Assembly (NCBI GenBank): GCA_964019425.1
Contig: OZ025785.1
Coordinates: 620,001-684,000, forward strand
From: Flectonema sp. DT1601
Lineage: Eukaryota
DNA length: 64,000 nt
Reading direction: 5' to 3'
Part shown: positions 6,328 to 57,698 of the stretch, piece by piece
Numbering within the stretch: position 1 is the first letter of the stretch
Layout of the letters: every line of letters starts with the position of its first letter
Position numbers and translations under genes: made by a program
The notes under the pieces: model-generated
What the model saw: only the letters and a program-made list of their open reading frames with translations
Told to the model about the DNA's origin: nothing
Databases searched by the model: none

Positions 6328-6582
6328 AAAGTGATCCTCTCAGGGATTGGGTTCGACATAATGTCGTAGTATTTGGGGACTCACAGATAGTTAACCGTTC
6401 CGCCCTGTTGTGTCTATCCATCCGGTACTCGTTTGTATGTCAGACTCGCTAACTAAACTATCTAGTATTATTTTGTGAAACTACGTATTCCACAACTGTT
6501 TTATGGAACAGCAGAACAATTGTGTTTTTTTTTCCCCCTTCTTTTTTTTTTTTTTTTACAATAAAAACTCATATTCCTACTC
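6328..6582 (+). repeat. Dispersed repeat related to the 5' flank of the Penelope-like element
   Basis: 6328-6420 is nearly identical to 49156-49250 (gtgatcct..agggat..ggttcgacataatgtcgtagtatttggggactca). 6475-6582 matches 35428-35522. Confidence 0.75.
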
Positions 6583-8880: not shown

Positions 8881-9755
8881 TGGTCAGTTGACTGAAGTGG
8901 CTGAGGCCTTCTTCGTTTTTTTTTTTTTTGCACCGACGAAGTCAGAGAAAAAACTATTTCTATTTACCTGTGCCGCCAGTAAAACTAGCTGTGATCAATT
9001 ATCTTTTAAAGCATAAATAACGGTATTGTATGTAGCACTCTCACCGTCTAGCTGGATTATGTTTTATCAAATAAAAAAAAAAAAGCAAAAAAAATTATGT
9101 GTGAGGCTAGTTTCTCTGTGAGTCAAATACATAGTTCTTTTTACCTTTTTTTTTTTTTTTTTTTTTCTTCTTCTCCCCAATTTATTTATTTACTTGATTT
9201 TTTTTTTGAAGTGTGTGTAAAAGAAAATACTAATTTTGTTAATCTGTAACGAGCTGCAGGGTATGCACCCCCCGAAATCCCTATATTCGACGGACAGTAA
9301 GTATGGGATTTTTATCAACCCCAACTGTTAGTTTCTTTTCATTGCGACCCAGATTTAGCTGGTTTCAAATTGCTTTATTTAATCATAGTATCAAGTTACC
9401 CCCTCTCATTTCGACATTACATTTATCCTAATGTAATGTCCTCTACGTGTTATACAGCTTTAGTCAACTGTACCATAATTCTGGTGCAATACAGATATTT
9501 ATATTTCTTCATAAATATGTTCAAAACGTTTCAAAACCCCCTGTTGTCAAAGATTGTCGAAGGAATTGTTGTTCCTTTGAGCGTTAAGAATGCAATATCA
9601 AATCTATCTTCTTATTGACATTCTGTGATGGGAACTAATGACTATGATGGTGGTAGATGAACTCTCATGCGTTAGTTCCTTAAGTAGAGGGAAAAAAAAA
9701 AAAAAAAAGGGAAAACCCCTAATTCCACAAAAATAGTTTGCGAAATCGCCAACTC

Positions 9756-31270: not shown

Positions 31271-31380
31271 ATATTTCACTTCTGCACCGATTTTGTAATC
31301 ACAAATGTTATTTATATATGTGGGTATTTGACGATGTGGAGACTGTTTCCTATTTCCACCTTTTCCCCCCTTTTAATTTT

Positions 31381-31553
31381 AAGCTGTAACGGGCTAAAGG
31401 GCAGGGGGGCGCTCAACCGTAGTACGTGACCCCCGAATCCCTATATTCGACAGCAAATGTGGGATTTTTTAGCGATACCAATCGTTGATTTTCTTATATT
31501 GCAACCAGGTTTGGCAGTTTCTTCATTTAATATTAGTATCAAGTTACCCCCCT
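31381..31553 (+). repeat. Solo copy of the Penelope-like element 3' structured motif
   Basis: Closely matches 52691-52896. Further copies or fragments at 8120-8152, 9243-9410, 26198-26376, 32242-32373 and 46794-46820. Confidence 0.85.
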
Positions 31554-35553: not shown

Positions 35554-35675
35554 TGTTGTATTATTCGAAGGTCTTTTTTCTTTTCTTAATTATCGTTGGG
35601 AAAAAGTTCTCGAATTGAAGTTACGTATCCTTTGACTTAATTCTTCATCACCAGAAACTCATCCAGTTAAAAATA

Positions 35676-37880: not shown

Positions 37881-38301
37881 CCACCTTCAGCCATTGGTAA
37901 GTAATTAGCTCCCGTCACTGTACTCACTTGGGAAAGTAATTATTCGAATTGAAAACACCATATTCGGAACTCCTGCCGATACATTGATGACTTCCTTAAC
38001 TGGAGTTGCAACCCTCCTTCTGAAGAATCTGATACATTTTATCCGAAGTGGGACGCAGAATTTGTGGACTTCGCATCTCCACCCCGACGTGTCCCCTGAA
38101 TTCACATATTCAACAGCACGTATTGGGTTTTATTAACCGATTGTTATGCAACTTAACGACGAATGGTATTTTAAGTGTGTTTGCTTTTTGGTCATTGGTT
38201 GTCTTTTCGTACGTCTCGTTAAGTGTTTCAGCTATTTGTGTTTCGGAACTGTTTTGATGAAAATAATTTGATTCTCTCATTTATGCTTTTCAGGTTTCCA
38301 A

Positions 38302-39240
38302 ATGGAGGAATCACAAAACAACATATGCACCGGTAGCAACGCCCAAGATAAATATTGGAAACAAGTATTCCATCCTCTTTTTAAAAGTGAGGGGGATTCT
38401 TCAATAATTTCCGAAAAGTAAAAGAACTGATATCTGAATTCTATCCGGAAGTGAAGAGGGGTCCAGTGGGTGAAACTCTTCTTCATAGATTGATATTAGG
38501 TCATCCTGATAAGGGGAAAGAGAATAAGTTAAGAAAGGTATTGGATTTACTACTCAAACTAGATGACCCAGTGTTATTAATGGAAATAGTATGTCACGCC
38601 TACAACAGGAGGGATCTGAAAGTTGCGCAAGTAAAATCAGGAAGAGAGTAGTTTTTGATGGAGAAACAGGATTACACCTTGCTATTGCTTTTGGTGACAT
38701 GGAATTGGTTGAAAACCTACTGTCGCTGGGGGCAGACTTGTGCTCTAGAGCATACGGTTCTTCCTTTGCTCCTGGAGTATCCAGAACGTACTTTGGTGAA
38801 TATCCCTTGTCCTTGGCAGCTGCGATGGGTTCTGTGGAAGTCGCTGAAATAATGCTGCGTCACTACTCTAAACAAACAACTGCTGTTTTAGACGATCAAC
38901 AAGATATCATTTCGATAGTTACTTTTCACAATGTGACGGCCATTTCCCGTCAAGGTCCTGAACTTGTAGTCTCTGACTCACGTTGATTTGACTTCCTTTA
39001 GTGAAGTTGTGAGTATTGACAAAATTCTTTTTATAATTGACTGTGAATCCCTGACCTCTATCGATGTTTCCAGACTTGAGAAGGTGACTACAATAGGAAG
39101 AGGTTTCGTTGGGTATTGAATCCTTTAGTGAAGTTACGATCATTGACGATTACTTGTTACTGTGAGTCCCTCACCTCCGTCGATGTTTCCCGTTTGGAGA
39201 GGCTGAGTGAAATAGGATTTGGATTCTTAAGTGATACGAA
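38302..39240 (+). pseudogene. TRPV-like ankyrin fragment fused to degenerate LRR pieces (copy 1)
   Basis: GPVGETLLH, GETGLHLAI, GADLCSRAYGSSF, YFGEYPLSLAA. Frameshifted, with a 31-bp deletion relative to copy 2. Confidence 0.7.
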
Positions 39241-39265
39241 ACTAACTAACAAAAGTGTCAATCGG

Positions 39266-40800
39266 ATTTAATAAAGATGTGAAATTATTTACGTTTTCTG
39301 ATTGGGAGATTCTTGACAACAGAGAAAATGGACTGCACTGTGTGCCAATACTAACAGCGGACTTGTTGTGTATTCGAGTGGAGCATGGGTTGTTGTGTAC
39401 GATTTTATTAACAAAAAGTCGATTGCAAGATTTCGTTATATCGATTCAGTGTCAGACGGTTGTGACTCGCTGACGTCAATCAATTTCACTTCTTTTCACA
39501 ACGTGACGGCCATCCCCAACAAGTTCTTGAATAACTTGAAGTCTCTGACTCACGTGGATTTATCCTCCTTTAGTAAAGTTACTAACATTGATGATGACTT
39601 TATTAGAAACTGTGAGTCCCTCACCTCCATCGATGTTTCCGGTCTGAAGAAGCTGACTACAATAGGAGGTAGATTCTTAAATAATTCAAAATCCCTGACT
39701 AGAGTGGACTTGCGTTGCCTTAGTAAGGTTACGAGCATTGGCGATTACTTTATTAGTAACTGTGAGTCCCTCACCTCCATCGGTGTTTTCGGTTTTAAGA
39801 AGCTGGCTGCAATAGGAAGCGGGTTCTTAGGTAGTACAAAGTCTCTGACTAGTGTGGATTTATCATCCTTGAGTGAAGTTACGAGCATTGGCTATAACAA
39901 ACATGTTGTGACTGCGGGTGACCTGAAGGCTTCACGTACTCGAATTGACGTTTTGTTCACACAAAATCCCGACATGTTGTGTGTCTTCGATGCCTCGGAA
40001 TATATTGACGATGAAGGCACCCTTTCTAATGATTGTGTCAAGAAGCTTCCGTCTTGCATCCGTCGGTTGTCATTCACTAACTGCAGCCGTTGTATTAAAT
40101 TTCAGGAGAATTTCCTGTCAGACGGTTGTGACTCGCTGACGTCAATCAATTTCACTTCTTTTCACAACGTGACGGCCATCCCCAACAACTTCTTGAAAAG
40201 GTTGAAGTCTCTGACTCACGTGGATTTATCATCCTTTAGTAAAGTTACGAGCATTGGCGATGACTTTATTAGTTACTGTGAGTCCCTCAAATCCATCGAT
40301 GTTTCCGGTTTGAAGAAGCTGTCTAAAATAGGAAATGGATTCTTAAGTAAATCAGAAGCCCTGACTAGAGTAGATTATCTTCTTTTGGTGAAGTTACGAG
40401 CATTGGCAAGAGCTTTATTTGTTACTGTGAGTCCCTCACCTCCATCGATGTTTCCGGTTTGAAGAAACTGTCTGAAATAGGAAATTTATTCTTAAGTAAT
40501 GCAAAGTCCCTGACTAGAGTGGATTTATCTTCCTTTAGTGAAGTTACTAACATTGGCGATCGCTTTATGCTTGACTGTGAGTCCCTCACCTCCATCGATG
40601 TTTCCGGTTTGAAGAAAGTGACTAAATTAGGAGATAGATTCTTGGGGCTAGAAAAATATGGAAATTCGCAGAAGCCAATGAAACTGATTATGAACAATGT
40701 CAGAGGATTAGATAAGTGCAGTGAAGTTGTTAAAAAGGAATTGCAGAGGTTAAAATATGAGTTTTCCAGTAGAAGAAGATTCAGGAGCACCAGCTTTTGA
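39266..40800 (+). pseudogene. Chimeric LRR pseudogene headed by a captured piece of the upstream receptor-kinase gene
   Basis: 39266-39451 copies 33535-33724 (4-bp deletion) and runs in frame into LRR repeats. Frameshift near 40375; repeats continue to TGA at 40800. Confidence 0.8.
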
Positions 40801-41136
40801 TAGGTGACCCTAGTGAATCATTTTCGATGGAATTGTTTTGGGGATATTAATTTGGCTGAAAACATGGGATAGTCATGGGCAACCTGGCTAAGACTGTTCC
40901 AGTGCAGAAAAAAAAAAAAAAAAAAGAACTTTTTCTCAGAAAAAGCTGGTAGTTTTTGCAGCACGATCCTACATAAAATTTGTCGTTTTTTGGCACTTCT
41001 GGCTCCACCCTTGTACTCATAAGATACATTTTTCCCCTTTGTCGAAAAAAAAAAAAACGCGAAAGGCCCCGTACGTGGCCTTCAGGGCTTCTAGGGTTAA
41101 TATAAAAAAGTGCACTGAATTAAAATATAAAAAAGA

Positions 41137-42176
41137 ACATATTCAACAGCACGTATTGGGTTTTATTGACCGATTGTTATGCAACTGAACGACGAATGGT
41201 ATTTTAAGTGTGTTTGCTTTTTGGTCATTGGTTGTCTTTTCGTACGTCTCGTTAAGTGTTTCAGCTATTTGTGTTTCGGAACTGTTTTGATGAAAATAAT
41301 TTGATTCTCTCATTTATGCTTTTCAGGTTTCCAAATGGAGGAATCACAAAACAACATATGCACCGGTAGCAACGCCCAAGATAAATATTGGAAACAAGTA
41401 TTCCATCCTCTTTTTAAAAGTGAGGGGGATTCTTCAATAATTTCCGAATAGTAAAAAAACTGATATCTGAATTCTATCCGGAAGTGAAGAGGGGTCCAGT
41501 GGGTGAAACTCTTCTTCATAGATTGATATTAGGTCATCCTGATAAGGGGAAAGAGAATAAGTTAAGAAAGGTATTGGATTTACTACTCAAACTAGATGAC
41601 CCAGTGTTATTAATGGAAATAGTATGTCACGCCTACAACAGGAGGGATCTGAAAGTTGCGCAAGTAAAATCAGGAAGAGAGAGATCAACCAAATCACTTC
41701 GATATAAAGAATTAGTTTTTGATGGAGAAACAGGATTACACCTTGCTATTGCTTTTGGTGACATGGAATTGGTTGAAAACCTACTGTCGCTGGGGGCAGA
41801 CTTGTGCTCTAGAGCATACGGTTCTTCCTTTGCTCCTGGAGTATCCAGAACGTACTTTGGTGAATATCCCTTGTCCTTGGCAGCTGCGATGGGTTCTATG
41901 GAAGTCGCTGAAATAGTGCTGCGTCACTACTCTAAACAAACAACTGCTGTTTTAACAAGATATCATTTCGATAGTTACTTTTCACAATGTGACGGCCATT
42001 TCCCGTCAAGGTCCTGAACTTGTAGTCTCTGACTCACGTTGATTTGACTTCCTTTAGTGAAGTTATGACTATTGACAAAATTCTTTTTGTAATTGACTGT
42101 GAATCCCTGACCTCTATCGATGTTTCCAGACTTGAGAAGGTGACTACAATAGGAAGAGGTTTCGTTGGGTATTGAA
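41137..42176 (+). pseudogene. Duplicate of 38104-39120 (TRPV-like ankyrin fragment plus LRR remnant, copy 2)
   Basis: Near-identical sequence; ORF 41484-42017 carries the ankyrin motifs. Confidence 0.8.
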
Positions 42177-43672
42177 AGCTGACCATAAGAGATGCCAAGG
42201 TTAACTTTAGGAACTTGATATTTAGGAAGTTAGGTTTATTTTGAAGTAAACGTGAATATGAGAATACTCTTGAAATCGAACCTAACAATCAAAATTCCAT
42301 TCAGGTAATTTGCCACCGATAAAACTTATGTCTGCGGGTATCGAATCCTTAAAAGTCTATCGTATTGCTATTGTATTGCAGATCGATAATATAACCACCG
42401 TTTTCTTATCTTTACTACAGTTAATTTGAGTTTTATTTTATTATACTGATGGATATTTGTACTCCTTTATCAGTTCTCACTCTCCTGTACTCATGTACAA
42501 CTCAATCGAACCCTGTCTGAAAGTGGATAAGAATATTTGTGAAATCATATTTTTAACGTGACAATCATTATAAATTTTTAACACTTGTGTTCCCTTGTCA
42601 CTGTTGATATTTCTGACAACTGCATCGTCGGCACCCACTTCGATCAACTAGTAGCAGCTCTCTCTCATATGAAATCTGTTCAACATTTTATTTGTGATGG
42701 AAACAGGACATCTACTTCAGGTTTTCATTCTCGATTCTCGAAATCAGAACCACTAACAGTTCCACAGTTGAAATGCACTGGATACTAAAATGCAGACTCA
42801 TCCAACTTTTGATGAAATAATGAGAGTGTTAGTTAACATTGCATCTCATTCAAGACATGTAATTGCTGCATGCTATAACACACTGGTCATGTCGCAGCCG
42901 ACTACATCTACAGGTGGGGAAGACGATCCAAATAAACTCCAGCAGTGGAATACAGCCGCACACCAAACATTCGAAAGACTTTCAGTCAGCGAAAGTCCAT
43001 CTTCCATTGATCCATGATTATGCTTTTTTTTTACACGCGATCATTTTGCTATATTTTTTTTTATTTTTTTTATTTTTTTTTTTTTGCATTTAACAAGTAT
43101 TGTAAGAACGAAAAAGACATTGATTTGACTTCCTTTAGTGAAGTTGTGACTATTGACACAATTCTTTTTGTAATTGACTGTGAATCCCTGACCTCTATCG
43201 ATGTTTCCAGACTTGAGAAGGTGACTACAATAGGAAGAGGTTTCGTTGGGTATTGAAAGCTGACCATAAGAGATGCCAAGGTTAACTTTAGGAACTTGAT
43301 ATTTAGGGAGTTAGGTTTATTTTGAAGTAAACGTGAATATGAGAATACTCTTGAAATCGAACCTAACAATCAAAATTCCATTCAGGTAATTTGCCACCGA
43401 TAAAACTTATGTCTGCGGTATCGAATCCTTAAAAGTCTATCGCATTGCTATTGTATTGCAGATCGATAATATAACCACCGTTTTCTTATCTTTATTAAAG
43501 TTAATTTGAGTTTTATTTTATTATACTGATGGATATTTGTACTCCTTTATCAGTTCTCACTCTCCTGTACTCATGTACAACTCAATCGAACCCTGTCTGA
43601 AAGTGGATAAGAATATTTGTGAAATCATATTTTTAACGTGACAATCATTATAAATTCTTAACACTTGTGTTC
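42039..43672 (+). repeat. Direct duplication 42039-42591 / 43120-43672 enclosing an unrelated gene fragment
   Basis: Near-identical ~550-bp copies. The intervening 42585-43017 has an RNI-type LRR-like remnant (LVTVDISDNCI...VQHFICDGN). Confidence 0.8.
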
Positions 43673-44783
43673 TACTTTTTTGAGTTTCCTTTTCGTGTTT
43701 CACATTCAGATCGCGAGATCTCTGAGTGGAACTCTCAGAAGAGCTACCGTCAGGACAATTCCTGCCATCGTGATTTGGACCCCCACGTGTCCAAGTCCAA
43801 CAATGTTCGTTTGGTTTTCTTTTTCTTAATTATTATTTCACTTGTTTGGGTGACTGGCAATTTTGGGCAGATAATCCTTACACCCACACGGTATATCGTT
43901 TTTTAGCATTTCAGGCCTTTCTGCCTATTTTTTATCCCAGCATCCTTTAGAAATTGCTTTAACTTCTCTATCCTTTTTCTTCTTAATTTTACAGGTACTC
44001 AGCAGCCAAATTCAGCAGAGAAATCAGTTATATTATTTACCCAGCAGATTTCGATCACCCAGATTCAAGGTCAGCAATAATTTTGCATAAAGTAAAGACA
44101 GTGATGACTCACTTTATTGTTGCTCTATTCTCATTCCAATTTAACAGCCATTGTTTTGAGACATTCTTAAAAGACAAAAAGCAAATCGAAGACTTCCATT
44201 CGATCACTTTGATGAGATCTACCGAACCACATAATTTAGTTTCCATGTGATCACAATAAAACCTCAGACAACTAATGTGAGCGTTGCTATGACATCTGAG
44301 AATAAAAGGAACCATTGAAGGTCTGCGAAGAGAAAATCAAACGCAAGATGGTTGACGACAACTCGTTAGATGGAAACGACACAAATAAAAACCCAATTTC
44401 AGTAGTTATAAGTTTAAACTGAACGAAAAGCAAATACACATTGCTAGCTATCTTGGCGAATTCCGATGGATTGTTACGTACCTTAGAATAATAACAAATT
44501 CAAAATAGAATAATATCTCCAGAACTTACTGATGAAGGACTAAAAGAGACGAGTAGTACAAGATTAAAAACCTAAAACTACATCCTGGATGTTTTCCCTT
44601 GCTTTCATCGCTGAAGAGGGGAATGGTCGGGAGAAATATTAAATCAGAGTTCACGCTGATATTCTTCAGGTGTTTCCAGACAAGTGGGAAGTTGACTCAC
44701 AGAAGTTTCCTTCATTCTTGAATTGAAGTTACGTATCCTTTGAATTAATTCTTCATCACCAGAAACTCATCCAGTTGAAAATA

Positions 44784-46466
44784 ATGACAACTATCGATTC
44801 CCTGTCCTCTGTTTTGAGGAGCCATCAGAGGTTCATGGCGAAGCTGCTGGTGGAAGTGGTGAGTCGGAAGGAGGAGTCGGGGGCGCTGATGGACAGTTTT
44901 TCAGAAGTTCTCAGATCGTCGGAGGAGATCATGGATGGAATGACGGATGCTGAGGCTGCGACTGAATTGACGACGTATAAGGAAGTACACCGGGTGGCGA
45001 GGGAGAAGGAGTCGGCGAAGTTGGTGGAAGGAAGCTCGCGATTACTGGGGAGCCTTTCCTTGCATCCTGACATGAAGTGTGCCGATATCGGGTTCGTTAA
45101 AGCTGATCTCAAGGGGGACGGGAAGATGGAGTTGGTCGAAGATGACCTGAGGAATGTATTCTCGTCCACCTGCTTCCCTCGGTTGCTGAACGAGGATGAG
45201 TATTTCAACACACTTCAAATTGGTTACTTGGGCATGGGTGAAACAGAAGAGGGTGTCCCAGCCCAACTCAGGAAGGAACTCTTCCTGCTGCTGGACTGGC
45301 CGAGACTCTCCCACTCGTCGAAGGAAGAAGTCAGATCCCAATTTGACAACACCTCATGGGGTGCTGAGATCCTCCGTGAGCTGGAAGATTCGAACAACTG
45401 GGGTACTGTGAAAAGAACATACAAATGGCCGTCTGAACGTGTTGTGACTGCGGAGGACCTGAAGACTCCACTTACTCGAATTGACGTTTTGTTCACACAA
45501 AATCCCGACATGTTGTGTGTCCTCGATGCGTCGGAATATATTGACTATGAAGGCACCCTTTCTAATGATTGTGTCAAGAAGCTTCCGTCCTGCATCCGTC
45601 GGTTGTCATTCACCAACTGCAGCCGTTGTATTAAATTTCAGGAGAATTTCCTGTCAGACGGTTGTGACTCGCTGACGTCAATCAATTTCAGTGCTTTTAA
45701 CAACGTGACGGCCATCCCCAGCAAATTCTTGAATAACTTGAAGTCTCTGACTCACGTGGATTTATCTTCCTTGAGTGAAGTTACGAGCATTGCCGATGAC
45801 TTTGTTAGTAACTGTGAATCCCTCACCTCCATCGATGTTTCCGGTTTTAAGAAGCTGACTAGAATAGGTTTTGTATTCTTGAATAATTCAAAGTCCCTGA
45901 CTCACGTGGATTTATCATCCTTTGGTGAAGTTACGAGTATTGGCGATGACTTTATTAGTAACTGTGAGTCCCTCACCTCCATCGATGTTTCCGGTTTGTC
46001 CAAGCTGACTACAATAAGAGATAGTTTCTTGTTAAATGCAAAGTCTCTGACTCACGTGGATTTATCATCCTTGAGTGAAGTTGCCATTATTGGTTGTGAC
46101 TTTATTAGTGACTGTGAGTCTCTCACGTCTATCGATGTTTCCGGTTTGAAGAAGCTGACTGTGATAGGAAGTGGATTTTTGAATAAAGCAAAATCTCTGA
46201 CTAGCATGGATTTATCTTCCTTGAGTGAAGTAACGAACATAGGCGATGACTTTATTAGTAACTGTGAGTCCCTCACCTCCATCGATGTTTCCAGTTTGAA
46301 GAACCTGACTTCAAAAGGAAGTGGATTCCTTCAAAATTCAAAGTCCCTGAGTAGCGCGGATTTATCTTCCTTGAATGAAGTTACGAGCATTAGCGATGGC
46401 CCTCCGTTGAGATACCTTGTAGATAGGTACTTAAGCTCCTTTGATGTGTCCCATATGATTAAATAA
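44784..46466 (+). CDS. LRR protein paralog (one cap+LRR module)
   Basis: N-terminal ~215 aa almost identical to the 35676 gene; intact frame; different LRR string. Confidence 0.9.
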   Translation: MTTIDSLSSVLRSHQRFMAKLLVEVVSRKEESGALMDSFSEVLRSSEEIMDGMTDAEAATELTTYKEVHRVAREKESAKLVEGSSRLLGSLSLHPDMKCADIGFVKADLKGDGKMELVEDDLRNVFSSTCFPRLLNEDEYFNTLQIGYLGMGETEEGVPAQLRKELFLLLDWPRLSHSSKEEVRSQFDNTSWGAEILRELEDSNNWGTVKRTYKWPSERVVTAEDLKTPLTRIDVLFTQNPDMLCVLDASEYIDYEGTLSNDCVKKLPSCIRRLSFTNCSRCIKFQENFLSDGCDSLTSINFSAFNNVTAIPSKFLNNLKSLTHVDLSSLSEVTSIADDFVSNCESLTSIDVSGFKKLTRIGFVFLNNSKSLTHVDLSSFGEVTSIGDDFISNCESLTSIDVSGLSKLTTIRDSFLLNAKSLTHVDLSSLSEVAIIGCDFISDCESLTSIDVSGLKKLTVIGSGFLNKAKSLTSMDLSSLSEVTNIGDDFISNCESLTSIDVSSLKNLTSKGSGFLQNSKSLSSADLSSLNEVTSISDGPPLRYLVDRYLSSFDVSHMIK

Positions 46467-47156
46467 AGCAAGGTCACTGACTAGCTTTCTTGTCTTCCTT
46501 TAATGAAGTTACGAGCATGTTGGAGGAATGCAGTGATGTCGTTAGAAAGAAATTACGGTAGTTTTCGGTTTTGCTTTTTTTTTTTTTTTAAATAGAAATT
46601 AGTGTTATTTTAAAATATAAGAAATAACACCAACTACAACTATTAGTAGGTTATTAGATTTCTTTCACTTTATATTTGTTGGTGATGAGAATTGAAAAGT
46701 ACGAAGTTAAGAAAGTATCCTAAGTGAATTTGTCTTTAAGTCAACCATCGGACTTTAAACTGAGATAATGAGCCGTTACCTTCAATCATTAGAGGTGGCC
46801 TTAAAGCCCCATATTCGACATGTTAAACAGGTTTGAATTAACCTGTTTACCATGTAGTGTTAACCAGTTTCAAAAATACTTATGATGAGCCTCAACCAAA
46901 TGTGTTTTTTGTTGGCTATCCCTACGACGAAGTAATCTGTGATGGTTTTACAGTGTGGATAATTATAACTTAACTTTGTGATCTCAGTTCTTTTTTGATC
47001 TTTCACCCTTCGAAGGAAGCTAAATTAATTGAACGTGTCGTATTATTTGAAGGTCTTTTTCTTTTTTTAATTATCGTTGGGAAAAAGTTCTCGAATTAAA
47101 GTTACGTATCCTTTGACTTAATTCTTCATCACCAGAAACTCATCCAGTTAAAAATA

Positions 47157-48700
47157 ATGGCAACTGTCGATTCCCTGTCCTCTGTTTTGAGGAGCCATCA
47201 GAGGTTCATGGCGAAGCTGCTGGTGGAAGTGGTGAGTCGGAAGGAGGAGTCAGGGGCGCTGATGGACAGCTTTTCAGAAGTTCTCAGATCGTCGGAGGAG
47301 ATCATGGTTGGAATGACGGATGCTGAGGCTGCGACTGAATTGACGACGTACAAGGAAGTACACCGAGTGGCGAGGGAGAAGGAGTCGGCGAAGTTGGTGG
47401 AAGGAAGCTCGCGATTACTGGGGAGCCTTTCCTTGCATCCTGACATGAAGTGTGCCGATACCGAGTTTGTTAAAGCTGATCTCAAGGGGGACGGGAAGAT
47501 GGAGTTGGTCGAAGATGACCTGAGGAATGTATTCTCGTCCACCTGCTTCCCTCGGTTGCTGAACGAGGATGAGTATTTCAACACACTTCAAATTGGTTAC
47601 TTGGGCATGGGTGAAACAGAGGAGGGTGTCCCAGCCCAACTCAGGAAGGAACTCTTCCTGCTGCTGGACTGGCCGAGACTCTCCCACTCGTCGAAACAAT
47701 CAGTTTAGCGTCTCGATCAGGACGGAAAATAGAAATTAATCGACATCGTCGATCGATAAAAAAAACAATGATAACGTTGTTTATTCTTTTTTTTATTTTT
47801 TTTTAAAGAAGTAAAATCCCAATTTGACAACACCTCATGGGGTGCCGAGATCCTCCGTGAGCTGGAAGATTCGAACAACTGGGGTCCTGTGAAAAGAACA
47901 TACAAATGGCCTCGGTATGAACGTGTTGTGACTGCGGAGGAGTTGAGAACTTCACATCTTCGTACTCGAATTGGCATTTTGTTCACAGAAAGTCCCGACA
48001 TGTTTTGTGTCCTCGATGCCTCAGAATATATTGACGATGAAGGAACCCTTTCTAATGATTGTGTTGAGATGCTTCCGTCTTGCATCCGTCGGTTGTCATT
48101 CACCAACTGCAGCCGTTGTACTTCATTAAAGATGCAGTTCCTTTTAGACAGCAACTCCATCGATGTATCCGATTTGAATAAGCTGACTACAATAGGAATT
48201 GGATTCTTAAGTAATTCAACATACCTGACTAACGTGGACTTGTCTTTAGTGAAGTAACGAGCATTGACGATGACTTTATTAGTAACTGTGAGTCCCTCAC
48301 CTCCGTCGATGTTTCAGGGTTTAAGAAACTGACTACAATAGGACATAAATTCTTATATAATTCAAAATCTCTGACTCAGGTGGATTTGTCTTCCTTGAGT
48401 GAAGTTACGGGCATTGGCAATCATTTTGTTAGAAACTGTGAGTCCCTCACCTCCATCGATGTATCTGGTTGGTCTAGGGTGACCCCAATAGGAAATAGAT
48501 TCTTGAGTTATTCAAAGTCCCTGACTAGCGTGGATTTGTCTTCCCTGAGTGAAGTTACGAGTGTTGGTGATGGCTTTATAATTAAGTGTGACTCCGTCAC
48601 CTCCATCGATGTTTCTGAAATCCAGAATTTTGAAAAAACTTTGGCGGAATTAGGTATCCATTTCTTTTTCTGCCAATTCTGTTCCAAATGTCCTTCTTGA
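47157..48700 (+). pseudogene. Disrupted third LRR paralog
   Basis: Same N-terminus, a ~108-bp insertion at ~47697-47804 carrying a stop, and later deletions and frameshifts. Confidence 0.85.
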
Positions 48701-49381
48701 TCCCCCTCCTCACTCGAGATCAGGATCCATACGTTGATGATCGGGTTGTTAAGTAAAAAGAGTTCGCAATAGCAAATTCTCGAATTGGAAAAAAAAAAAT
48801 CATATTCAGTGAACAGCGAAAAAAAAAGAAAAAAATCTTTTACTGAACAGCGAAAATGAAATTATTGGACCCTCCCCCCAATAGTCACTGTATCATGATT
48901 TTCTTTTTATTATTGAGTTCTGATACAATACAGAGATTTATGAACCTAATCAAACAGTCTTCCCCCCAGTAGCGAAAACCTCTTCGTATTATTATTACTT
49001 ATTTTGCTTTAAAAATTTCTACCTCTTTTTTTTTTTTAATCATTATCATTATCAACATCTTTTCCTCTCCCCAAACTTTGTTATTTTGAACCGGTCAAGG
49101 CGGAAGTTGAGGTATTCAGTTCTCTCGAACATTAGTTTTCCTCGCTGAAGCTAAAAAAGTGATCCTCAGGGATAAGGTTCGACATAATGTCGTAGTATTT
49201 GGGGACTCAGGTGGTTAACTTACCGTTCCACCCTTTCGTTGTCTATCTAACCACAAACTCATATTCTAACTAACTCGATGTGTTTTAATAATTTTTTTTT
49301 ATTTTCTTTTTTAAATATTTTTAATAATAGTAATAAACTCATATCCTAACTCAAGAATCAAGATGTTAGGAACCTGCAGAA

Positions 49382-52300
49382 ATGAAAACTCTTTTTTTTT
49401 TTTTCCCCCCCTTTTTTTTTTCCCCCCAATGTCCTTGTTATCAATACAAAGAAGATAATTGTAATACCAAACATGTTGCAGGACATTGTTCTTCCTTGAA
49501 ATGTAGTGATCAACTAAAAGAGGTACTAAAGTTAGGAATGCTTTACCGTATTCACTGTTCACAACATGAGATGACACAAGAACTTCATGAAGCAACTGAT
49601 AGATTTACCGAAAAAGTAACGAGATTCATGATTGGTACAACTAAAAGCGACAGAGAAGCAAACGCCGAAGTCTTAAATAGATGGCTGAAGGAAGAATTCA
49701 CTTCACAAATACAATTAAAACCCTTACCCAACGATGCAACTTTAGCAAAGTGTATGAAAGAATTAAAGGACCTAAAAAAACATGTCGTATTCCTCCCAGT
49801 GGATAAAGCAAGACATGATTGCGCAGTAATGTGCAAAGCTTATTATTGTGAGCTATTGAAAAATGAAATGGAAAGTTACGAACAAGTAGAAAATGTATTA
49901 ACAGACGGGTTAATGAAAACAAATAAGGAACTCAAATTTCCAAAAATCACTGGCGCAGTGCTGTACTTATATGGGATTTTTAAACTGCATAAGATCCCAG
50001 ACATCCGCCTTAGATGGATTGCAGGTACTTCTGTCAACTGTGAAACTTTGATTGAGGAAACGAAAGAACCTGACAAAGAGACTGACGAATCAAAGAAGGT
50101 GACCAATACAAGAGAGAGAGTTTTTCGATCCAATGTAATGACACACGCTCAACAAGAACTTACTGGAATTATTAAGTTAATACTGCTCACACTAAAATCA
50201 AAGGACCATATGGAATATGTAAAGACTGGTGTTAGAAAATATTTTATTGTTGACTCAGTAGATGAGGTAATACAACGGATTAAATCCAACTACCCTGAAT
50301 TTTTAAAATACGCTGAACCCAAAACTTATGACTTCACCACCATGTACAGCAACCTGAAGCATAAGGTACTTAAACGAAATTGCAAAGAAGCAGTAGATGA
50401 AGCTTTTAGATTTTCCGGTAAGAAACATATTGCACGAAATAGCAGAGCACGTGGAAAGTCCAAGACTTTCTTTTTCACAGACGGAGTTGATGCAAACACA
50501 AAGGAATACACTTCCGAAATGATTGGTAAACTAATTGACATGTGTATCGACTATTCTTTAATCCAACCGATTGGTAGTCATCAATGCTACCGTCAAACGA
50601 AAGGGATACCCATGGGTGGTAATGCCTCCCCGCTTCTAGCTAACTTGTATTGTTATGCAGTTGAGAAGAAATTTATAGAACAGTCAACTCTGGAAATTGC
50701 GAAGTCACATACTTTAACAGTAAGATATATTGATGATTTTTTATGCTGGGGGACAAAACCACCGCCGCAAAAGATGTACGGGATGGACTACAAAGATACC
50801 TCCCTAGATAGTAATGATGTGGTGTTTCTTGGTGCACGGATACGGGTCGAGGAAGACATTGCAAGGGAAGAAGTGAAAGTGAAAAAGAAATTTATTCGTC
50901 TCTCCGTTCATCGGAAAGAGTGGAACTTCAAACCTTTACAGTACGTGCATGCAGACTCCACGATGCCTGATTCCATACCCAAAGGTATAGTTAAAGGAGC
51001 GATGTATAGAGCCAGCATGATTTGTAACAACCTCTCTGACCTACTAATAGAGTTTGAATGGATAATTTATCGGATGATTACTAGAAAATTTAAAAAGCAT
51101 CACATATCAACCGGCTACAAGGAATTTTGTGACGAATTCTATGAAGAATATCCTTTTGTCAATAAAAGATGCATCAATCTTTTCTACCGGATCCTTGAAG
51201 GCTTGAAGAAAGATTATTACTACCCGACTAGTGAAAGAAACTATATAACGTACCCGCCCATCGAAAAAGATGAAATTGAAACCGACAGAACAGCTGTCCT
51301 AGTTCAAAAATTGTCATCCCCTACCAATTCGGATGCCAAGGTGAATCTGGGACATTTGGACGAGTTGGTTTCTTATTTTACGTTTCGGGATATGAAAACT
51401 CTACTAGAAACTATGGACTGGGACTTAACAATACCCTCGGTAAACACAGCAGGTAATTGTTTCTTTGAATCTATGGCACTAATAATTTGTCAAAATGGAG
51501 TCATAAACGCTGAATGGGTACGTAGAGTTATACATCGTAGACTGACTTTAAAGAAGGAGCAATACCAAAGTTTTGTAGACACAGATTATGAAAAATTCAC
51601 AGAAGATGTACTTGACAGTAATACATATACAGATCATGTGTATATTCAAGCTTTCTTAGATGAAATGGGTTGTTCTTTAATACTAATCACTATTAATAGC
51701 GTGCAGGAAAAAAGTTTACGATGGATTTCCCCAGCCAGTACACAAGATACATATTTTTGGGGTACGATCGGTGTAATGGCGTACCATACTACTTCTGAGC
51801 ACTATATGCCAATTTTACCGAGAAGTCACGGAAAACAATGCACCATATTTACTATGTCGCAATGGAATTATGAGGCTTTTATGAATTTAATAGTACCTGA
51901 ATTAGCGAAAATGTGTCCTAATTTTGTCGACGCTGATCCTCTTCTATCGAAAGCGGGTGCCACTATGAACCTTTTAACCTTCGACAACGTTAATTATGAT
52001 GTTTACGAACTGTTACATTACTGGTACTTCGATGAGATCAAAATGAAAGCAGCCACAACAATGTCAAGTTGCTCAGATTTAACCTCAGAAACCGTATCTG
52101 TGACCTCTTCCGATTCATCTTCCTCAACTACTTCCTCAAGTTCTAATACGATTGATGAAGAGCTAGTTGTGGATGTACTTATTAATTTATTAGAAGATTC
52201 AGATATTCTAATCTTTAAAGAAGAGCTCCACTTATGTCCAGCAAGACACAACCTGAAATTTGCGAAGGTAAGTAGTAATATGTACTGTAATATCTGTGAT

Positions 52301-52510
52301 CGCAACATGCCACAAACCACTTATAATCTTGCATTCCAATGTAGACAAAAAGACTGTGATTATGATGTTTGTTTGAGTTGTTTGGGATTATTCATCTGTA
52401 CTGCGTGTGGTGCCACGGAATCTCAGGCCGGAAGACAATTTAATTTACGAGGCTTAAGATCACACCAAACTCATTGTACAGTCTTTCGAGAGCAAAGCGA
52501 ACGTAGTTAA
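49382..52510 (+). CDS. Penelope-like reverse transcriptase fused to an OTU-like cysteine protease and C-terminal zinc fingers; no GIY-YIG visible
   Basis: CPC...HVAGH linker, PVDKA...VMCKAYY, KLHK...RWIAG, YDFTTMY, GIPMGGNASPLLANLY, RYIDD, FLG. Then AGNCFFESMA...SEHY, then CPARH...CNIC...C..DCDYDVCLSC and CTAC...H...C. Confidence 0.9.
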   Translation: MKTLFFFFPPFFFSPQCPCYQYKEDNCNTKHVAGHCSSLKCSDQLKEVLKLGMLYRIHCSQHEMTQELHEATDRFTEKVTRFMIGTTKSDREANAEVLNRWLKEEFTSQIQLKPLPNDATLAKCMKELKDLKKHVVFLPVDKARHDCAVMCKAYYCELLKNEMESYEQVENVLTDGLMKTNKELKFPKITGAVLYLYGIFKLHKIPDIRLRWIAGTSVNCETLIEETKEPDKETDESKKVTNTRERVFRSNVMTHAQQELTGIIKLILLTLKSKDHMEYVKTGVRKYFIVDSVDEVIQRIKSNYPEFLKYAEPKTYDFTTMYSNLKHKVLKRNCKEAVDEAFRFSGKKHIARNSRARGKSKTFFFTDGVDANTKEYTSEMIGKLIDMCIDYSLIQPIGSHQCYRQTKGIPMGGNASPLLANLYCYAVEKKFIEQSTLEIAKSHTLTVRYIDDFLCWGTKPPPQKMYGMDYKDTSLDSNDVVFLGARIRVEEDIAREEVKVKKKFIRLSVHRKEWNFKPLQYVHADSTMPDSIPKGIVKGAMYRASMICNNLSDLLIEFEWIIYRMITRKFKKHHISTGYKEFCDEFYEEYPFVNKRCINLFYRILEGLKKDYYYPTSERNYITYPPIEKDEIETDRTAVLVQKLSSPTNSDAKVNLGHLDELVSYFTFRDMKTLLETMDWDLTIPSVNTAGNCFFESMALIICQNGVINAEWVRRVIHRRLTLKKEQYQSFVDTDYEKFTEDVLDSNTYTDHVYIQAFLDEMGCSLILITINSVQEKSLRWISPASTQDTYFWGTIGVMAYHTTSEHYMPILPRSHGKQCTIFTMSQWNYEAFMNLIVPELAKMCPNFVDADPLLSKAGATMNLLTFDNVNYDVYELLHYWYFDEIKMKAATTMSSCSDLTSETVSVTSSDSSSSTTSSSSNTIDEELVVDVLINLLEDSDILIFKEELHLCPARHNLKFAKVSSNMYCNICDRNMPQTTYNLAFQCRQKDCDYDVCLSCLGLFICTACGATESQAGRQFNLRGLRSHQTHCTVFREQSERS

Positions 52511-52690
52511 TTATCACTCGCAGCAAAGTATTGCGAGATGTGCTCCACTGGTAGTGTGCTACGAACCAGAAATAATTTATATTTTATTTTTATTCTTTAT
52601 TTCTTTTATTATTTTTGCAAAAATAGTTTTCTTTTTTTTAATTTTCCTTTAATATTTATTTACCTTTGAAGTGTGAAGGAATACTATTTT

Positions 52691-52896
52691 AAGCTGTAAC
52701 GGGCTACAGGGCATGGGGTGCTCAACCTGTAGTACGTGGCCCCCGAATCCCCATATTCGACAGCACATATGGGATTTTCTATCGATACCAACTGTTGATT
52801 TCTTATATTGCAACCAGGTTTGGCCGAACCCTATTTTCGTTTTTGCCAGTTTCAAGTTGCTTTCCATTTAATATTAGTATCAAGTTACCCCCCTCA
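52691..52896 (+). ncRNA. Candidate structured RNA in the 3' flank of the Penelope-like element
   Basis: Nested stems gctgt/acagc, gggctac/gtggccc, gggca/tgctc and cgaat/attcg, with complementary segments atgggg/ccccat; multicopy. Confidence 0.5.
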
Positions 52897-53458
52897 TTTT
52901 TTCTAAACTAATTAATAACACTAACTCAAGTATCCGATTCCTCCTTTCTTAGTGAATTCCTAGTATAAGATTAAGGCTCCTGAAACTACATATTCTATTA
53001 CCCTATGAATACTTTTCTTTTACTAATCTCTACTTTTCTTATTCTCACTTTTTTCTAAACTAAATTTAATGATACTAGCTAACTCAAGAATCTTTCTTCG
53101 CTGAAGAGGGCTGGGTAAGGGGAATTTTTGCATTCGATTGAATTTTGCCGCCCTCTCCCCTTCTTTTTTGACTGATAACCATTAATACTAACTCAAGAAT
53201 CCCATTCCTCAAAAAAAAAAAATAATAATTTACACTTTTTTTTTTTTCAAAATAATTGATTTAAAAGAAATTTCGAGTACTCTTATTATGATATCAAACA
53301 GAACAACAACAAGAACATGAATTGTTGTGAATACTGGTGAGTTTCTTTATTGTGTACTACCAGTCAACATATGGCTACTGATTCAGCAATAAATGTAATT
53401 AAAAAGAATTTCACATTATTAAAAAAAAAAAATTAAAAAAAAAATAAGGAAAAAAAAA

Positions 53459-55648
53459 ATGAATCAAGTAGTCATTTTAGTAGTGCTGTTATCGATCTGT
53501 TGTGTTGTGTTGGGATTCAAACCGTCACCAAATTTAAATGACTTACTGATATTTAGAAATGGAACTCAAGTGAAAAGTGTGGATGACTGGACAACTCGAA
53601 GAGAAGAATTAAAATATCTTTTGCAACAACACATTTTAGGGACGCTACCTCATGAGATCCCTGCGTTGTTATCGACAAAGACAGTTAATAGTTCGTTATC
53701 AGAAGGAGGCGTGAGATCAACATTTATTTTACTTAATTTTAGTCGTAATGTCTCTACTTATATTGAATTATTATACTCTGAAAACGACGTTATTAATAAT
53801 AAAAAACTACCGATATTTCTAACACAATGGAATCACCGATTGTGGTCAGCACTCGCTGTCACCAGAGGATACATCGGAGTGACTTACATGGGTGCAGACA
53901 TAGCAGATTCTGCACCCGATTTTCAAAATGCATATCCCAATTGTACGATGAAGCTGATTCTAGCAAGAGCATTTGTTTTAAGTAGGGTAATAGACTACGT
54001 TGTTACCCTCTCTTATGTTAATTCAAGTCAAATATCTGTGTCTGGACACTCTCGCAATGGCAAGCAATCAATCATTGCGGCGGCATTTGATGAGAGAATA
54101 ATGTCGGTTGTTGGATCGAGTCCTGGAGCACCAGTCGCATCTCCATTTCATTTTACGTCGTCAAACTATTATGGAGAAGGTCCTAGAACTGGTAATGTTG
54201 CTGGGTTATGGTGGTTGGAAAGTATTTTACAGTATGATGAGCATCCTGAGAACCTTCCAATTGATGGACATGCGATTGTTGCGTTGATAGCTCCGAGACA
54301 CGTCATAATCTCAACAGGTAGAACTGATTTTGAATCTGACATGGTATTCGCAGGTGAAATGAACGTTAAAAGCGTCACTAAAGTCTACAGCAAATTTTAC
54401 AACAAAGCAAGCCATCTGAGATTAATGACACGGGATGGTGATCATCACGGATATGATGATTTCCACACATACTTTGATTGGATTGATTATTCTTTTAATA
54501 GAAGAGAGAGATCACTTTCTAATAACAATCTCTGTGCTGGTTGTTTTATGATCCATCCAGAAGACTTATCAACATACACTACTGCTGCTGGTTTTTCATG
54601 GGGTCGGTGGAATCACTCTTATGGAGAACTTACTACTACTAAACCAGATATATCTTCCCCACTCATATCAAGAGTAAATTGGCTACTACAATTACCAACA
54701 TCACCTTTTTCATTTTCTGGTGGAAACATCGGAGAAGAACACAAAGCATCAAACTATATTCCCGGAATGCTTAGGCATAGCACAGCTTTTTCTAATATAA
54801 ACAGCTTTATTGTTTCTTTTGGAGAAGATTTGGATGCAACGTTGTATTGGCCTAAGAATGTGACGAATACTCGGCAACCTATTTTGATATGGTTGCATCC
54901 ATACAGCTATAATACTGGATACTCGCCTTCTTATAGACAAAGTAATGTCGCTCAGGAAATGGCTGCTGATGGTCATGTTGTGATGACATTTGATCAAATT
55001 GGTTTTGGTTTAAGAAATTTTAGAGGTGGAAATGTCTTTTATGATCGATACGGAGGAAGATCAAGTTTGTTTGGACGAATGACACAAGAAGTGAGTATGG
55101 CGGTTGACTTCTTGGTGTGTAGGTCGAAATCACCTCCCGATGAGAAGTGTGGTCAGCAATTTCAATTTGAAAACACAGAATTCAACAACCTCCCCTTAAT
55201 CGATCCGACTCGTATATCCGTAGCAGGATTCTCACTCGGTGGTAACGTTGCTATTCACTCAGCTGTTTTAGATAGCAGGATATCAGCAGTTGCGACATTC
55301 TCATCATGGACACCAATGCGAACTGACACTTCAGATCTCCCGACTGGTGGCCTCTCTCGTCTTTATGACCTTCATGGTCTGATACCAAGACTTGGATATT
55401 TTCAATATTCTGAACAGTCTGTTCCTTATGATTACATCGATTTGATTAACAGCATATCTCCTCGTCCTCTTCTTGTTCATGCCCCGTTACATGATCGTGA
55501 TGCGTCATTCTCTCATGTTTTAAAAACTATTAATTCTGTGAAACCTTCGTATCCGAAATTGACTTTCAGCTCACCTGATCGAAACGGGACAATGGAAGCC
55601 GAAGAAGTCGCTATTTTAAAAAAATGGTATTCAGCAATGATGATGTAG
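53459..55648 (+). CDS. Secreted tandem alpha/beta-hydrolase (CE15 glucuronoyl-esterase-like domain plus a second hydrolase domain)
   Basis: Signal peptide; W..RREEL; SGHSRNGK...AAAFDERI; ALIAPR. Second domain DQIGFG, AGFSLGG, SISPRPLLV. Confidence 0.85.
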   Translation: MNQVVILVVLLSICCVVLGFKPSPNLNDLLIFRNGTQVKSVDDWTTRREELKYLLQQHILGTLPHEIPALLSTKTVNSSLSEGGVRSTFILLNFSRNVSTYIELLYSENDVINNKKLPIFLTQWNHRLWSALAVTRGYIGVTYMGADIADSAPDFQNAYPNCTMKLILARAFVLSRVIDYVVTLSYVNSSQISVSGHSRNGKQSIIAAAFDERIMSVVGSSPGAPVASPFHFTSSNYYGEGPRTGNVAGLWWLESILQYDEHPENLPIDGHAIVALIAPRHVIISTGRTDFESDMVFAGEMNVKSVTKVYSKFYNKASHLRLMTRDGDHHGYDDFHTYFDWIDYSFNRRERSLSNNNLCAGCFMIHPEDLSTYTTAAGFSWGRWNHSYGELTTTKPDISSPLISRVNWLLQLPTSPFSFSGGNIGEEHKASNYIPGMLRHSTAFSNINSFIVSFGEDLDATLYWPKNVTNTRQPILIWLHPYSYNTGYSPSYRQSNVAQEMAADGHVVMTFDQIGFGLRNFRGGNVFYDRYGGRSSLFGRMTQEVSMAVDFLVCRSKSPPDEKCGQQFQFENTEFNNLPLIDPTRISVAGFSLGGNVAIHSAVLDSRISAVATFSSWTPMRTDTSDLPTGGLSRLYDLHGLIPRLGYFQYSEQSVPYDYIDLINSISPRPLLVHAPLHDRDASFSHVLKTINSVKPSYPKLTFSSPDRNGTMEAEEVAILKKWYSAMMM

Positions 55649-55952
55649 ATTACCTTTTTTTTTTTTTGTATTTAACAAAGTATTGTAAGAACGAAAAAAG
55701 AATGTTAGGTAGCACACGTAAACCTCCTTTAGCTTTTTATCGGTTTCTTGACACAAAACAATTATTTTATTTCTAAAATCTTTTCTCTCTCTAACACAAA
55801 TTCTTTTCACCGAAGATTTGAAGTTGCACGCGTACGACAGGAAAAAAAAAAAAAAAAAAGAATTATCTACCTTACCCTCTCTATGTTAACCAACATCATG
55901 AATGAGACTCTCACTTCACTTTATATTTCATTACAGAGATTAAATTCACAAT

Positions 55953-57698
55953 ATGAAAACACACCTTATCCTGTTGCTGTTACTTGTAGGTTCTGCTGTA
56001 GGGCTTCACTTGAATATTTGTGGGATAAAATGCACCAATAGAAATCACAAATGTTTTCCTTCTGATGCGGAAATCAGATTGTTTGGGGAAACACTGAATG
56101 GCGATGTGTTTATATTGCAAGATCCGGAATACTTGAATTTAACGATTATGAATAATCTTTTATTCAGAGAGATCCCTGCGTTTGTCGTCACTCCGAACAT
56201 TGACGATGACATAGTGAAGGTAATCAGATTTGCGAAAGAAAAGAATATGAGGCTGTCAGTAAGAGGTGGTGGTCATGCCTACGATGGTCAAAATGTCCAA
56301 CAAGATTCAATTTTGATAAATATGAAAAATTATCTAAAAATTGACATTCACAAGGAAGATTCCAAGCACCCATATGTCAACCTCGGAACTGGTTTGATTT
56401 TTGAAGAAATCTACGAAGAAGTTTACAAACACAATCTGGTGTTCAATGGTGGCAGCTGTCCAACTGTTGGTGTCGCTGGTTGGACACAAGGAGGAGGAAC
56501 AACAGCTGAGAATCGAATGCTTGGATTGGGAGTTGATTCTGTCTTATCAATGCGTGTTGCCCTGATGAATACGAAAATTGTTACCATCACTGCTGAGAGT
56601 GAGGAGTATAAAGATTTGTTTTGGGCTCTTCTGGGAGGTGGAGGAGGGACATACGCCATTATATTGGAATACAAGATGAAACTTCACATTCCTCCACCAA
56701 CATTTACATCTCTATCACTTGACTTCGTATGGAGTACGTCACTGATGAGTGATTGTGGGAGATCAGCGATGGATTTTTGGATGAGTATTCAGGATGATAT
56801 CCCAAGTGAATGGGGTGTTTATGTTGTTCTATCATCACTGCCGAGCAATCACGGAAATGATACTGACGTTCCCCTTAGATTATCATCATGGCAAAATAGA
56901 AATCACAGAAGTGTTTCAAAAATCCAACGTCAGTTTCTTTCCAGCAGAGGTGTTTCACTTGAACATGATCACAGTGGTTTATTGACCTTTCATGGATTGT
57001 ATTGGGGTGATATTGAAGAGGCTAGGAAGTCAATTCAACCACTACTCGATTTTAAACCTCAATGTCAACTTCGTGTGATCGATTTCTCAGATCAATTCAT
57101 GCCTCCATTAGAAGTCAAACCTACCTTTGAAAGCTATCAATCCGAAATTACATGCAGTAGAGGTGGTGGTCTTGGATGTCGAGACAGAATTTCTAACAAA
57201 CCGTTATTTGTGACTCCGGAGATGGTTAATGATGAACTTTATGATCTTCTTGACACTGTTGCGAATTTCAAAACCGATGACCCATCAGAAGGAGTTGGTT
57301 TCATGTGGACTGCTCTCGGAGGAGCAGCATCAAAACCAAACCCAGACAATAGCATCAGTTCTGGTTTCAGAAATGCATTTGGAAATGGTGCCTTCAACGG
57401 CTACTGGTCTGACAGATCACGCGATGATTATTTTACTGGATTTTCAAGAACTTTCGGAAGACACATGTACGAGATAGCTGACAAAGCAGCAGCAAAAAGC
57501 AACGATGTTGCATACATGTACGTTAACTACCCTGACACAGATGGTATTCACAGTTGGCATAATCGGTACTTTGGAGAAGCTTATGAACGTCTTGCTGAAA
57601 TCAAATTGAAATACGATTCTTCTAACATGCTTTTAAAATTTCAAGGAGTAGGATGGCCTGTGCTTGATGAAAATGCCGAAACTTGTCAGAACAAGTAA
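55953..57698 (+). CDS. Secreted FAD-linked oxidase, berberine-bridge-enzyme-like
   Basis: Signal peptide; RGGGHAY; GSCPTVGVAGWTQGGG (His and Cys for bicovalent FAD); DLFWALLGGGGG; YVNY...RLAEIKLKYD. Confidence 0.9.
   Translation: MKTHLILLLLLVGSAVGLHLNICGIKCTNRNHKCFPSDAEIRLFGETLNGDVFILQDPEYLNLTIMNNLLFREIPAFVVTPNIDDDIVKVIRFAKEKNMRLSVRGGGHAYDGQNVQQDSILINMKNYLKIDIHKEDSKHPYVNLGTGLIFEEIYEEVYKHNLVFNGGSCPTVGVAGWTQGGGTTAENRMLGLGVDSVLSMRVALMNTKIVTITAESEEYKDLFWALLGGGGGTYAIILEYKMKLHIPPPTFTSLSLDFVWSTSLMSDCGRSAMDFWMSIQDDIPSEWGVYVVLSSLPSNHGNDTDVPLRLSSWQNRNHRSVSKIQRQFLSSRGVSLEHDHSGLLTFHGLYWGDIEEARKSIQPLLDFKPQCQLRVIDFSDQFMPPLEVKPTFESYQSEITCSRGGGLGCRDRISNKPLFVTPEMVNDELYDLLDTVANFKTDDPSEGVGFMWTALGGAASKPNPDNSISSGFRNAFGNGAFNGYWSDRSRDDYFTGFSRTFGRHMYEIADKAAAKSNDVAYMYVNYPDTDGIHSWHNRYFGEAYERLAEIKLKYDSSNMLLKFQGVGWPVLDENAETCQNK

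Follow-up and report, generated by a model that had tools for sequence, protein, structure and literature searches.

The DNA considered here, the window, is a stretch of 64,000 nucleotides from Flectonema sp. DT1601 (GCA_964019425.1, contig OZ025785.1, positions 620,001 to 684,000 of the forward strand), and its subject is one long open reading frame (ORF) in which a Penelope-like reverse transcriptase (RT) is followed by a predicted OTU-type protease domain and two zinc modules (Table 1). The frame runs from stop to stop over 49370-52510 (1046 aa), or for 1042 aa from the ATG at 49382. A preliminary description, made from the letters alone, had named this 1042-codon frame and its motifs, and all of them lie where it placed them, from the CPC of the CxC motif to the Cys/His clusters spanning 52235-52477. 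The first 15 codons after the ATG (MKTLFFFFPPFFFSP), which had been counted as element, are T/C-tract flank: homology to full-length copies begins at the Gln codon at 49427, which corresponds to Q402 of protein P0049. Pfam recognizes RVT_1 in the frame (E 1.3e-5) and C1_2 at its C-terminus (E 1.8e-4), each below the curated cut-off.

The window copy and its full-length relatives

A search with the RT returned 47 proteins, the top one 99% identical to the window RT and representing a cluster of 29; counts of family members given below rest on the 15 listed members of that cluster. P0049 (found on three contigs) and P0056 have 1428 aa and P0059 has 1370 aa. A GIY-YIG domain (Pfam E 0.002-0.005 in P0049 and P0059; 0.0023 in P0049) opens these full-length copies, a KR-rich block comes next, and their domain order is GIY-YIG endonuclease, CxC linker, RT, OTU domain and two zinc modules. 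The window frame matches their last 1027 residues (402-1428) with 5-8 differences. Whether this copy was 5′-truncated or came from an endonuclease-less element had been left open; the N-terminal GIY-YIG of the 1428-aa copies settles the matter in favor of truncation, and an endonuclease-less element is rejected. The full-length copies are 99.5% alike and the OTU tail recurs on many contigs at 98-99.6% identity; the family is evidently young, multi-copy and recently active.

The preliminary description had assigned the element to the Naiad/Chlamys group of Penelope-like elements (PLEs), and the CxC motif, the DKA motif and the GIY-YIG of the full-length copies bear this out. Within that group, the GIY-YIG region (GVIYGLLCERGHIRYVG) has a single Cys and no upstream finger, and lacks the CCHH and CX2-5CxxC motifs of Naiad-type rows; because these motifs are missing, the criteria of Craig et al. 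2021 (PMC8557442) class the element as Chlamys-type rather than Naiad. The distance from RT motif A to motif B is 91 aa in the window family versus 81-88 in 15 Naiad-type rows (in a set without canonical PLEs), a spacing consistent with a fingers insertion between these motifs, and in the tree the RT falls among rows lacking CCHH and away from those of Naiad type (in a set without named Chlamys sequences). Further likenesses to Chlamys (PMC8557442) are the N-terminal GIY-YIG without CCHH, the KR-rich block, the CxC and DKx motifs, an apparently long stretch between motifs A and B, truncation at the 5′ end, (C)n targets and the lack of a detected hammerhead. Among named proteins, the nearest to the RT come from Diplonema papillatum (38-40% identity); this diplonemid kinship is a point of difference from the Chlamys elements of Chara, and a diplonemid-like protist is the probable host.

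The junctions tell a similar story. The window copy has a C6 run at its 5′ junction and another on its 3′ side, and the truncated database copies P0059, P0060 and P0072 open, each at a truncation point of its own, with Pro or Phe/Pro runs that stem from flanking DNA. Such C-tract junctions and varied 5′ truncation fit the (C)n targeting reported for Chlamys, whose targets are (C)n or (CA)n (PMC8557442). The window also holds older 3′-end fragments (64-90% identity by blastn) with differing 5′ starts. Four of them stop at the point equivalent to 52887, and two of these, at 9.4 and 31.5 kb, finish with TATCAAGTTA and pass directly into a C-run, like the window copy. The simplest reading is that they derive from the 3′ untranslated region (UTR) of the OTU-bearing element. 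A check for pseudo-LTR or tandem structure, confined to the window locus, found no upstream copy of the element 3′ end; Rfam detected no ribozyme, hammerhead-core patterns were at chance level (13 versus 8.2 ± 3.1), and the probable 3′ UTR is not more stably folded than shuffled sequences (z −1.5). Since it lacks the endonuclease and the 5′ end, the window copy was likely dead on arrival. It also has Leu in place of the Pro of other copies in the conserved PYLYG motif (residue 198; 49802-49970), one of four changes in this copy that are absent from P0049, P0056 and P0059.

Table 1. Coordinates of the element, its parts and its neighbors in the window
Feature	Position	Strand	Basis
5′-truncated Chlamys-type Penelope-like element, ORF remnant and 3′ UTR	49427..52887	+	full-length copies; 3′ end inferred from older fragments
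Left flank, T13-C7-T10-C6; last C doubles as that of the first element codon	49392..49427	+	sequence
Right flank, C6, consistent with (C)n-tract insertion	52888..52893	+	sequence
CxC motif (CPC...H..GH; CPC at 49430) and linker, Naiad/Chlamys-typical	49430..49800	+	motif as defined in PMC8557442
Penelope-type RT and thumb: DKA (49802), YDFTTMY (50327), GIPMGG (50603), YIDD (50726)	49802..51223	+	Pfam, homologues; end set by purpose-built RT profile
Predicted OTU-fold cysteine protease domain: GNCFF 51452 (Cys 51458), EHY 51797 (His 51800)	51380..51850	+	Pfam, PDB profile, ESM Atlas, AlphaFold model
Ser/Thr-rich linker, limits approximate	52055..52150	+	translation
Eight-ligand zinc module, C1/CL-like (C-x3-H, CxxC, C-x4-C, CxxC)	52235..52381	+	PDB and Pfam matches
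Terminal C2HC zinc finger	52397..52477	+	similar fingers in clade members
Probable 3′ UTR	52511..52887	+	3′ end point common to dispersed fragments
Older short 3′-end fragment	31376..31553	+	blastn
Further older 3′-end fragments	9135-9411, 26220-26365, 32242-32362, 8123-8153, 38087-38131		blastn
APE-RT non-LTR retrotransposon ORF, long and open, 1204 aa	10461..14075	+	
BspA-like leucine-rich repeat (LRR) genes, tandem array of 150-nt units, some copies broken	35600..48700	+	
Downstream host genes: glucuronyl-esterase-like double hydrolase and flavin adenine dinucleotide (FAD)-linked berberine-bridge-like oxidase	53423..57698	+	

The OTU domain

The part of the frame downstream of the RT had been read as an OTU domain from its catalytic signature, and four lines of prediction indicate that it does have an OTU fold. 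First, Pfam matches OTU on the excised window domain (E 2.9e-4, below the curated cut-off). Second, a PDB profile search with the window domain and its counterpart from a sister family finds OTUD5 as the best match (E 4.7e-5), along with Otu1, OTUD1 and the OTUs of nairoviruses; of the 27 PDB sequences matched with E no higher than 10, those ranked first all contain an OTU. Third, the ESM Atlas returns OTU clusters scoring 0.93. Fourth, an AlphaFold model built on four sequences (pLDDT 69.5; two of the four are more canonical OTUs, which tilts the model to the OTU fold) finds OTU structures in a Foldseek comparison (E about 2e-6, TM 0.6-0.7) and superposes on OTUD3 with Z 15.2 and a root-mean-square deviation (rmsd) of 3.1 Å over 132 residues. 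A model from the single sequence (pLDDT 31) was unusable. The resemblance to OTUD1, OTUD3, OTUD5, yeast Otu1 and Otu2 and nairovirus vOTU is that of a minimal OTU fold (Z 12-15, rmsd 3-4 Å, about 130 residues), whereas sequence identity to them is 9-18%.

The domain recurs wherever the family could be followed far enough. The catalytic Cys position is reached by 11 of the 15 listed members, all of which run on into the same OTU; eight keep the Cys and three decayed copies have lost it. Of the 12 members of the sister family, seven cover the position, and the Cys is present in all seven. The two families are 55% identical in the RT and 25% in the OTU domain, and despite the latter figure they have GNCFFE and SEH[YF]xPIL in common, with catalytic Cys and His invariant in a four-sequence OTU alignment. 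The OTU is thus a family-wide feature that extends to the sister family, which answers the question, raised in the preliminary description, of whether all copies carry it. Both OTU families and one Josephin-like family seem to be present in one assembly. A word-based search with an OTU profile, which is weak evidence, returned the two element families only and no donor lineage.

An exchangeable protease position and its possible role

More distant relatives also carry proteases behind the RT. An unfiltered RT search gave 1391 representatives at E up to 0.001, of which 150 were listed; the set used for the tree comprised 262 proteins, reduced to 191 with enough RT coverage and to 149 after removal of near-duplicates. 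The window family falls inside a 66-row clade (FastTree support 100) in which 49 rows have tails of 120 aa or more, versus 4 of the 83 other rows. Purpose-built profiles label these tails as Josephin (10), USP (8), OTU (4) and Ulp1 (2); the profiles were seeded on some of the counted tails, and independent support comes from Pfam. It reports USP in P0007 (3.6e-16), P0010, P0012, P0013 (2.5e-21), P0014, P0122, P0123 and P0128, Josephin in P0016 (1.2e-10), P0017, P0018, P0140, P0153, P0207 and P0261 (3.6e-10), Ulp1 in P0136 (7.6e-8) and weakly in P0200 (E 0.014), and OTU in P0003, P0247 (3.5e-9) and, weakly, P0177. Pfam confirmed no protease in the tails of P0131, P0015/P0085, P0133, P0198 and P0243; the labels of P0085, P0129, P0133 and P0134 come from the purpose-built profiles and that of P0131 from motifs.

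In an IQ-TREE phylogeny of 32 hand-chosen rows, the window OTU pair lies inside a starred 15-row clade whose other rows are USP, Josephin-like or unlabelled, and the tail label changes at least seven times over the tree. The approximately unbiased (AU) test rejects a tree in which the four OTU carriers form one clade (p 8.5e-5; the test was set after the first tree had been seen). By these trees the OTU sits in two separate RT lineages. Relatives have one of three other, unrelated protease families (USP, Josephin, Ulp1) at the same C-terminal position, which suggests that such elements repeatedly recruit ubiquitin/SUMO proteases there.

Some tails have further peculiarities. Those of P0133/P0276 and P0198 hold a Cys...His papain-like domain, followed in P0133 and P0198 by a RING-like finger (seen by eye; Pfam reports neither), and that of P0177 has a DnaJ domain after the OTU (Pfam E 4e-15). 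Naiad-type elements with a CCHH endonuclease (P0030, P0032/P0104, P0237) carry a C-terminal USP outside the tailed clade, apparently a separate acquisition. In Diplonema papillatum, P0007, P0010, P0093 and P0120 are multi-copy RT-USP elements in the host annotation, where they are called host “Ubiquitin carboxyl-terminal hydrolase 26” or are fused into kinesin, UNC93 and STIP1 gene models. This matters for annotation: transposon copies of the USP version bear the names of host ubiquitin carboxyl-terminal hydrolase genes.

Transposons that encode deubiquitinases (DUBs), and the swapping of DUB classes, are already known. Ginger1 elements carry a C-terminal OTU or Ulp1 as alternatives, sometimes with a PHD finger; unlike the present elements they are DDE DNA transposons, and they use two protease families versus four here (PMC2836005). 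Helitrons and Helentrons encode OTU and/or VTD DUBs as interchangeable classes that displace one another; the VTD domains have been characterized as DUBs and the OTU domains are called untested, and these are rolling-circle DNA transposons (PMC9741609). Closest to the present case, Chlamys-1/-4_cBra of Chara braunii has a C-terminal Josephin-like motif and a Cys/His motif (Craig et al. 2021, PMC8557442), whereas the window family has an OTU and an extra C1/CL-like zinc module. The words “OTU” and “ubiquitin” are absent from the main text of that paper, and OTU, ubiquitin, Ulp1 and Diplonema from one of its supplementary files. A literature search, with Repbase, Dfam and subscription journals outside it, found no report of OTU or USP in PLEs. 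The preliminary description had not recognized the architecture; that judgment stands for an OTU in a PLE, which on this search would be the new part, but not for protease tails as such, given the Josephin of Chara.

The reading we favor, with a probability of roughly 0.6, is that the window holds a 5′-truncated copy of a recently active Chlamys-type element whose OTU would act as a deubiquitinase attached to the transposition machinery. PLE mobilization involves endonuclease nicking and 3′-primed reverse transcription (PMC11167929). From known PLE biology, the endonuclease would nick at (C)n tracts, and from the same biology and the truncation pattern the RT would begin at the 3′ end of the RNA and in many cases terminate prematurely. 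The OTU would most likely cleave ubiquitin, and the binding of chromatin or nucleic acid would fall to the zinc modules. Comparison suggests selection for the ability to cleave ubiquitin or ubiquitin-like tags, because relatives carry USP, Josephin or Ulp1 folds at the same place; a ubiquitin-like substrate is probable because these families and OTU are distinct and share a substrate class. Cleavage would most likely either shield the element’s own protein from degradation, much as protection from proteasomal degradation has been proposed for Helitron/Helentron DUBs (PMC9741609), or strip ubiquitin near the target site. Repeated replacement of folds at one position is good comparative evidence that ubiquitin/SUMO signaling restricts such retroelements, and a family this young and intact makes the idea testable with a single Cys mutant.

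Several points weigh against this reading. No protease was detected in 42 of the 66 rows of the tailed clade (some of them incomplete ORFs), and the protease is dispensable there. The OTU is much less conserved between the two families than the RT (25% versus 55%), and the more canonical sequences in its alignment bias the AlphaFold model toward the OTU fold. At the active site, the usual DGNC Asp (Cys-3) is Ala or Phe and the residue at His+2, usually Asp or Asn in OTUs, is Met or Phe in the two families; canonical residues are seen in P0247/P0177. This leaves a Cys-His dyad in view and no third catalytic residue at either of its usual positions, although a differently placed acid may take its part.

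The alternative that fares best, though we hold it only tentatively, is that the protease acts in trans on host silencing or DNA-repair factors as a counter-defense, rather than on the element’s protein. Ulp1-type tails imply SUMO substrates, effects on DNA repair have been proposed for Ginger (PMC2836005), and a fused chromatin-type zinc module would put the protease on chromatin; the idea differs from ours in substrate only and otherwise overlaps with it. It is rather unlikely that the OTU is instead a weak or dead enzyme, serving as a ubiquitin binder or scaffold. The missing third residue and DGNC Asp and the sub-threshold Pfam score would agree with a loss of activity, whereas Cys, His and their neighbors are invariant in both families, between which 75% of OTU positions differ. 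A20-type OTUs likewise lack a polar residue at His+2, which also counts against a dead enzyme.

The preliminary description had further allowed for a polyprotein-processing protease, which would cut the protein encoded by the element in the manner of some viral papain-like proteases. One long ORF with linkers would suit such a role, and viral DUBs often process polyproteins (PMC9741609). The cut sites are typically di-glycine (PMC9741609), however, and the sole GG of P0049 lies inside RT motif B; because P0049 has no di-glycine outside the RT, and with four folds that share ubiquitin-like substrates replacing one another and so pointing to that substrate class, we consider polyprotein processing quite improbable. 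Lastly, an origin in a single fusion between a truncated retroelement and an OTU gene of the host is rejected, and an error of assembly or gene calling likewise has next to no likelihood: some Diplonema gene models do join such RTs to host genes of unrelated kinds (kinesin, UNC93, STIP1), but here the frame is uninterrupted, near-identical OTU-tailed copies lie on many contigs, the sister family has the same order, and a 3′ UTR and C-tract junction follow downstream.

Zinc modules and surroundings

Fingers similar to the terminal C2HC one also end P0122, P0123 (five copies), P0124, P0144 and P0241, and by this distribution it is native to the element clade. The eight-ligand module occurs, among the proteins compared, only in the two OTU families, and a word-based search with its profile (again weak evidence) returned the same two families only. 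Pfam matches it to C1_2 (E 5.6e-5), and the sole PDB match is 6TLY, the central domain of KKT2/KKT3 (E 0.0028 for the module by itself, 3.8e-5 when the finger after it is included); a two-family profile places PKC C1 (E 0.003) ahead of 6TLY (E 0.008), leaving CL and C1 unseparated. The ligand order, with C-x3-H first, would fit CL better than C1. ESM Atlas scores for the module are 0.80 or less, and one cluster there has RING and zf-KKT2_KKT3 on 35% of its members, a hint that domains of the latter type are not confined to kinetochore kinases.

As a lead only, then, the module weakly resembles the CL domain of kinetoplastid KKT2, which reads the histone H3 N-terminus. CL is a ZZ domain in permuted form, in which a key Asp mediates binding to the free N-terminus of H3 (bioRxiv 10.64898/2026.08.13.744621), and it has been described as unique to kinetoplastid kinetochores. 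Like the KKT2/KKT3 central domain (6TLY; PMC8178753), the window module has eight zinc ligands in the same order and a CDYDVC with the H3-binding Asp, and a C2HC finger follows; the second Asp of CDYDVC (codon 52364) matches D626 of B. saltans KKT2, a correspondence mapped by hand from the residue numbers of the KKT2 paper onto the alignment. Unlike a clear match, the similarity in the CL part is weak (E 0.003) and the sister family has Asn at the key Asp, and the tandem may be coincidental since the next finger is one that the clade has of its own. It is decidedly doubtful that a protist Penelope-like clade has an exchangeable anti-ubiquitin slot, occupied by OTU, USP, Josephin and Ulp1 folds at different times, in which this family couples its OTU to a KKT2-type CL domain reading the free H3 N-terminus. 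If it did, the CL domain would guide an integration complex equipped with a deubiquitinase toward particular chromatin, and a histone reader described only recently would extend beyond kinetochores, to mobile elements.

The rest of the window contains long intronless genes, the LRR gene array and the APE-RT non-LTR element, whose ORF we take to be Ingi/L1Tc-like; an inverted 48-nt fragment of this element lies at 48673-48720. The motif CTAACTC[AG]A occurs five times around the insertion (49270-53200) and nowhere else in the window. The flanks also hold short dispersed repeats: 49156-49252 is like 6328-6423, and 53095-53125 is like sequences at 62928 and 44602.

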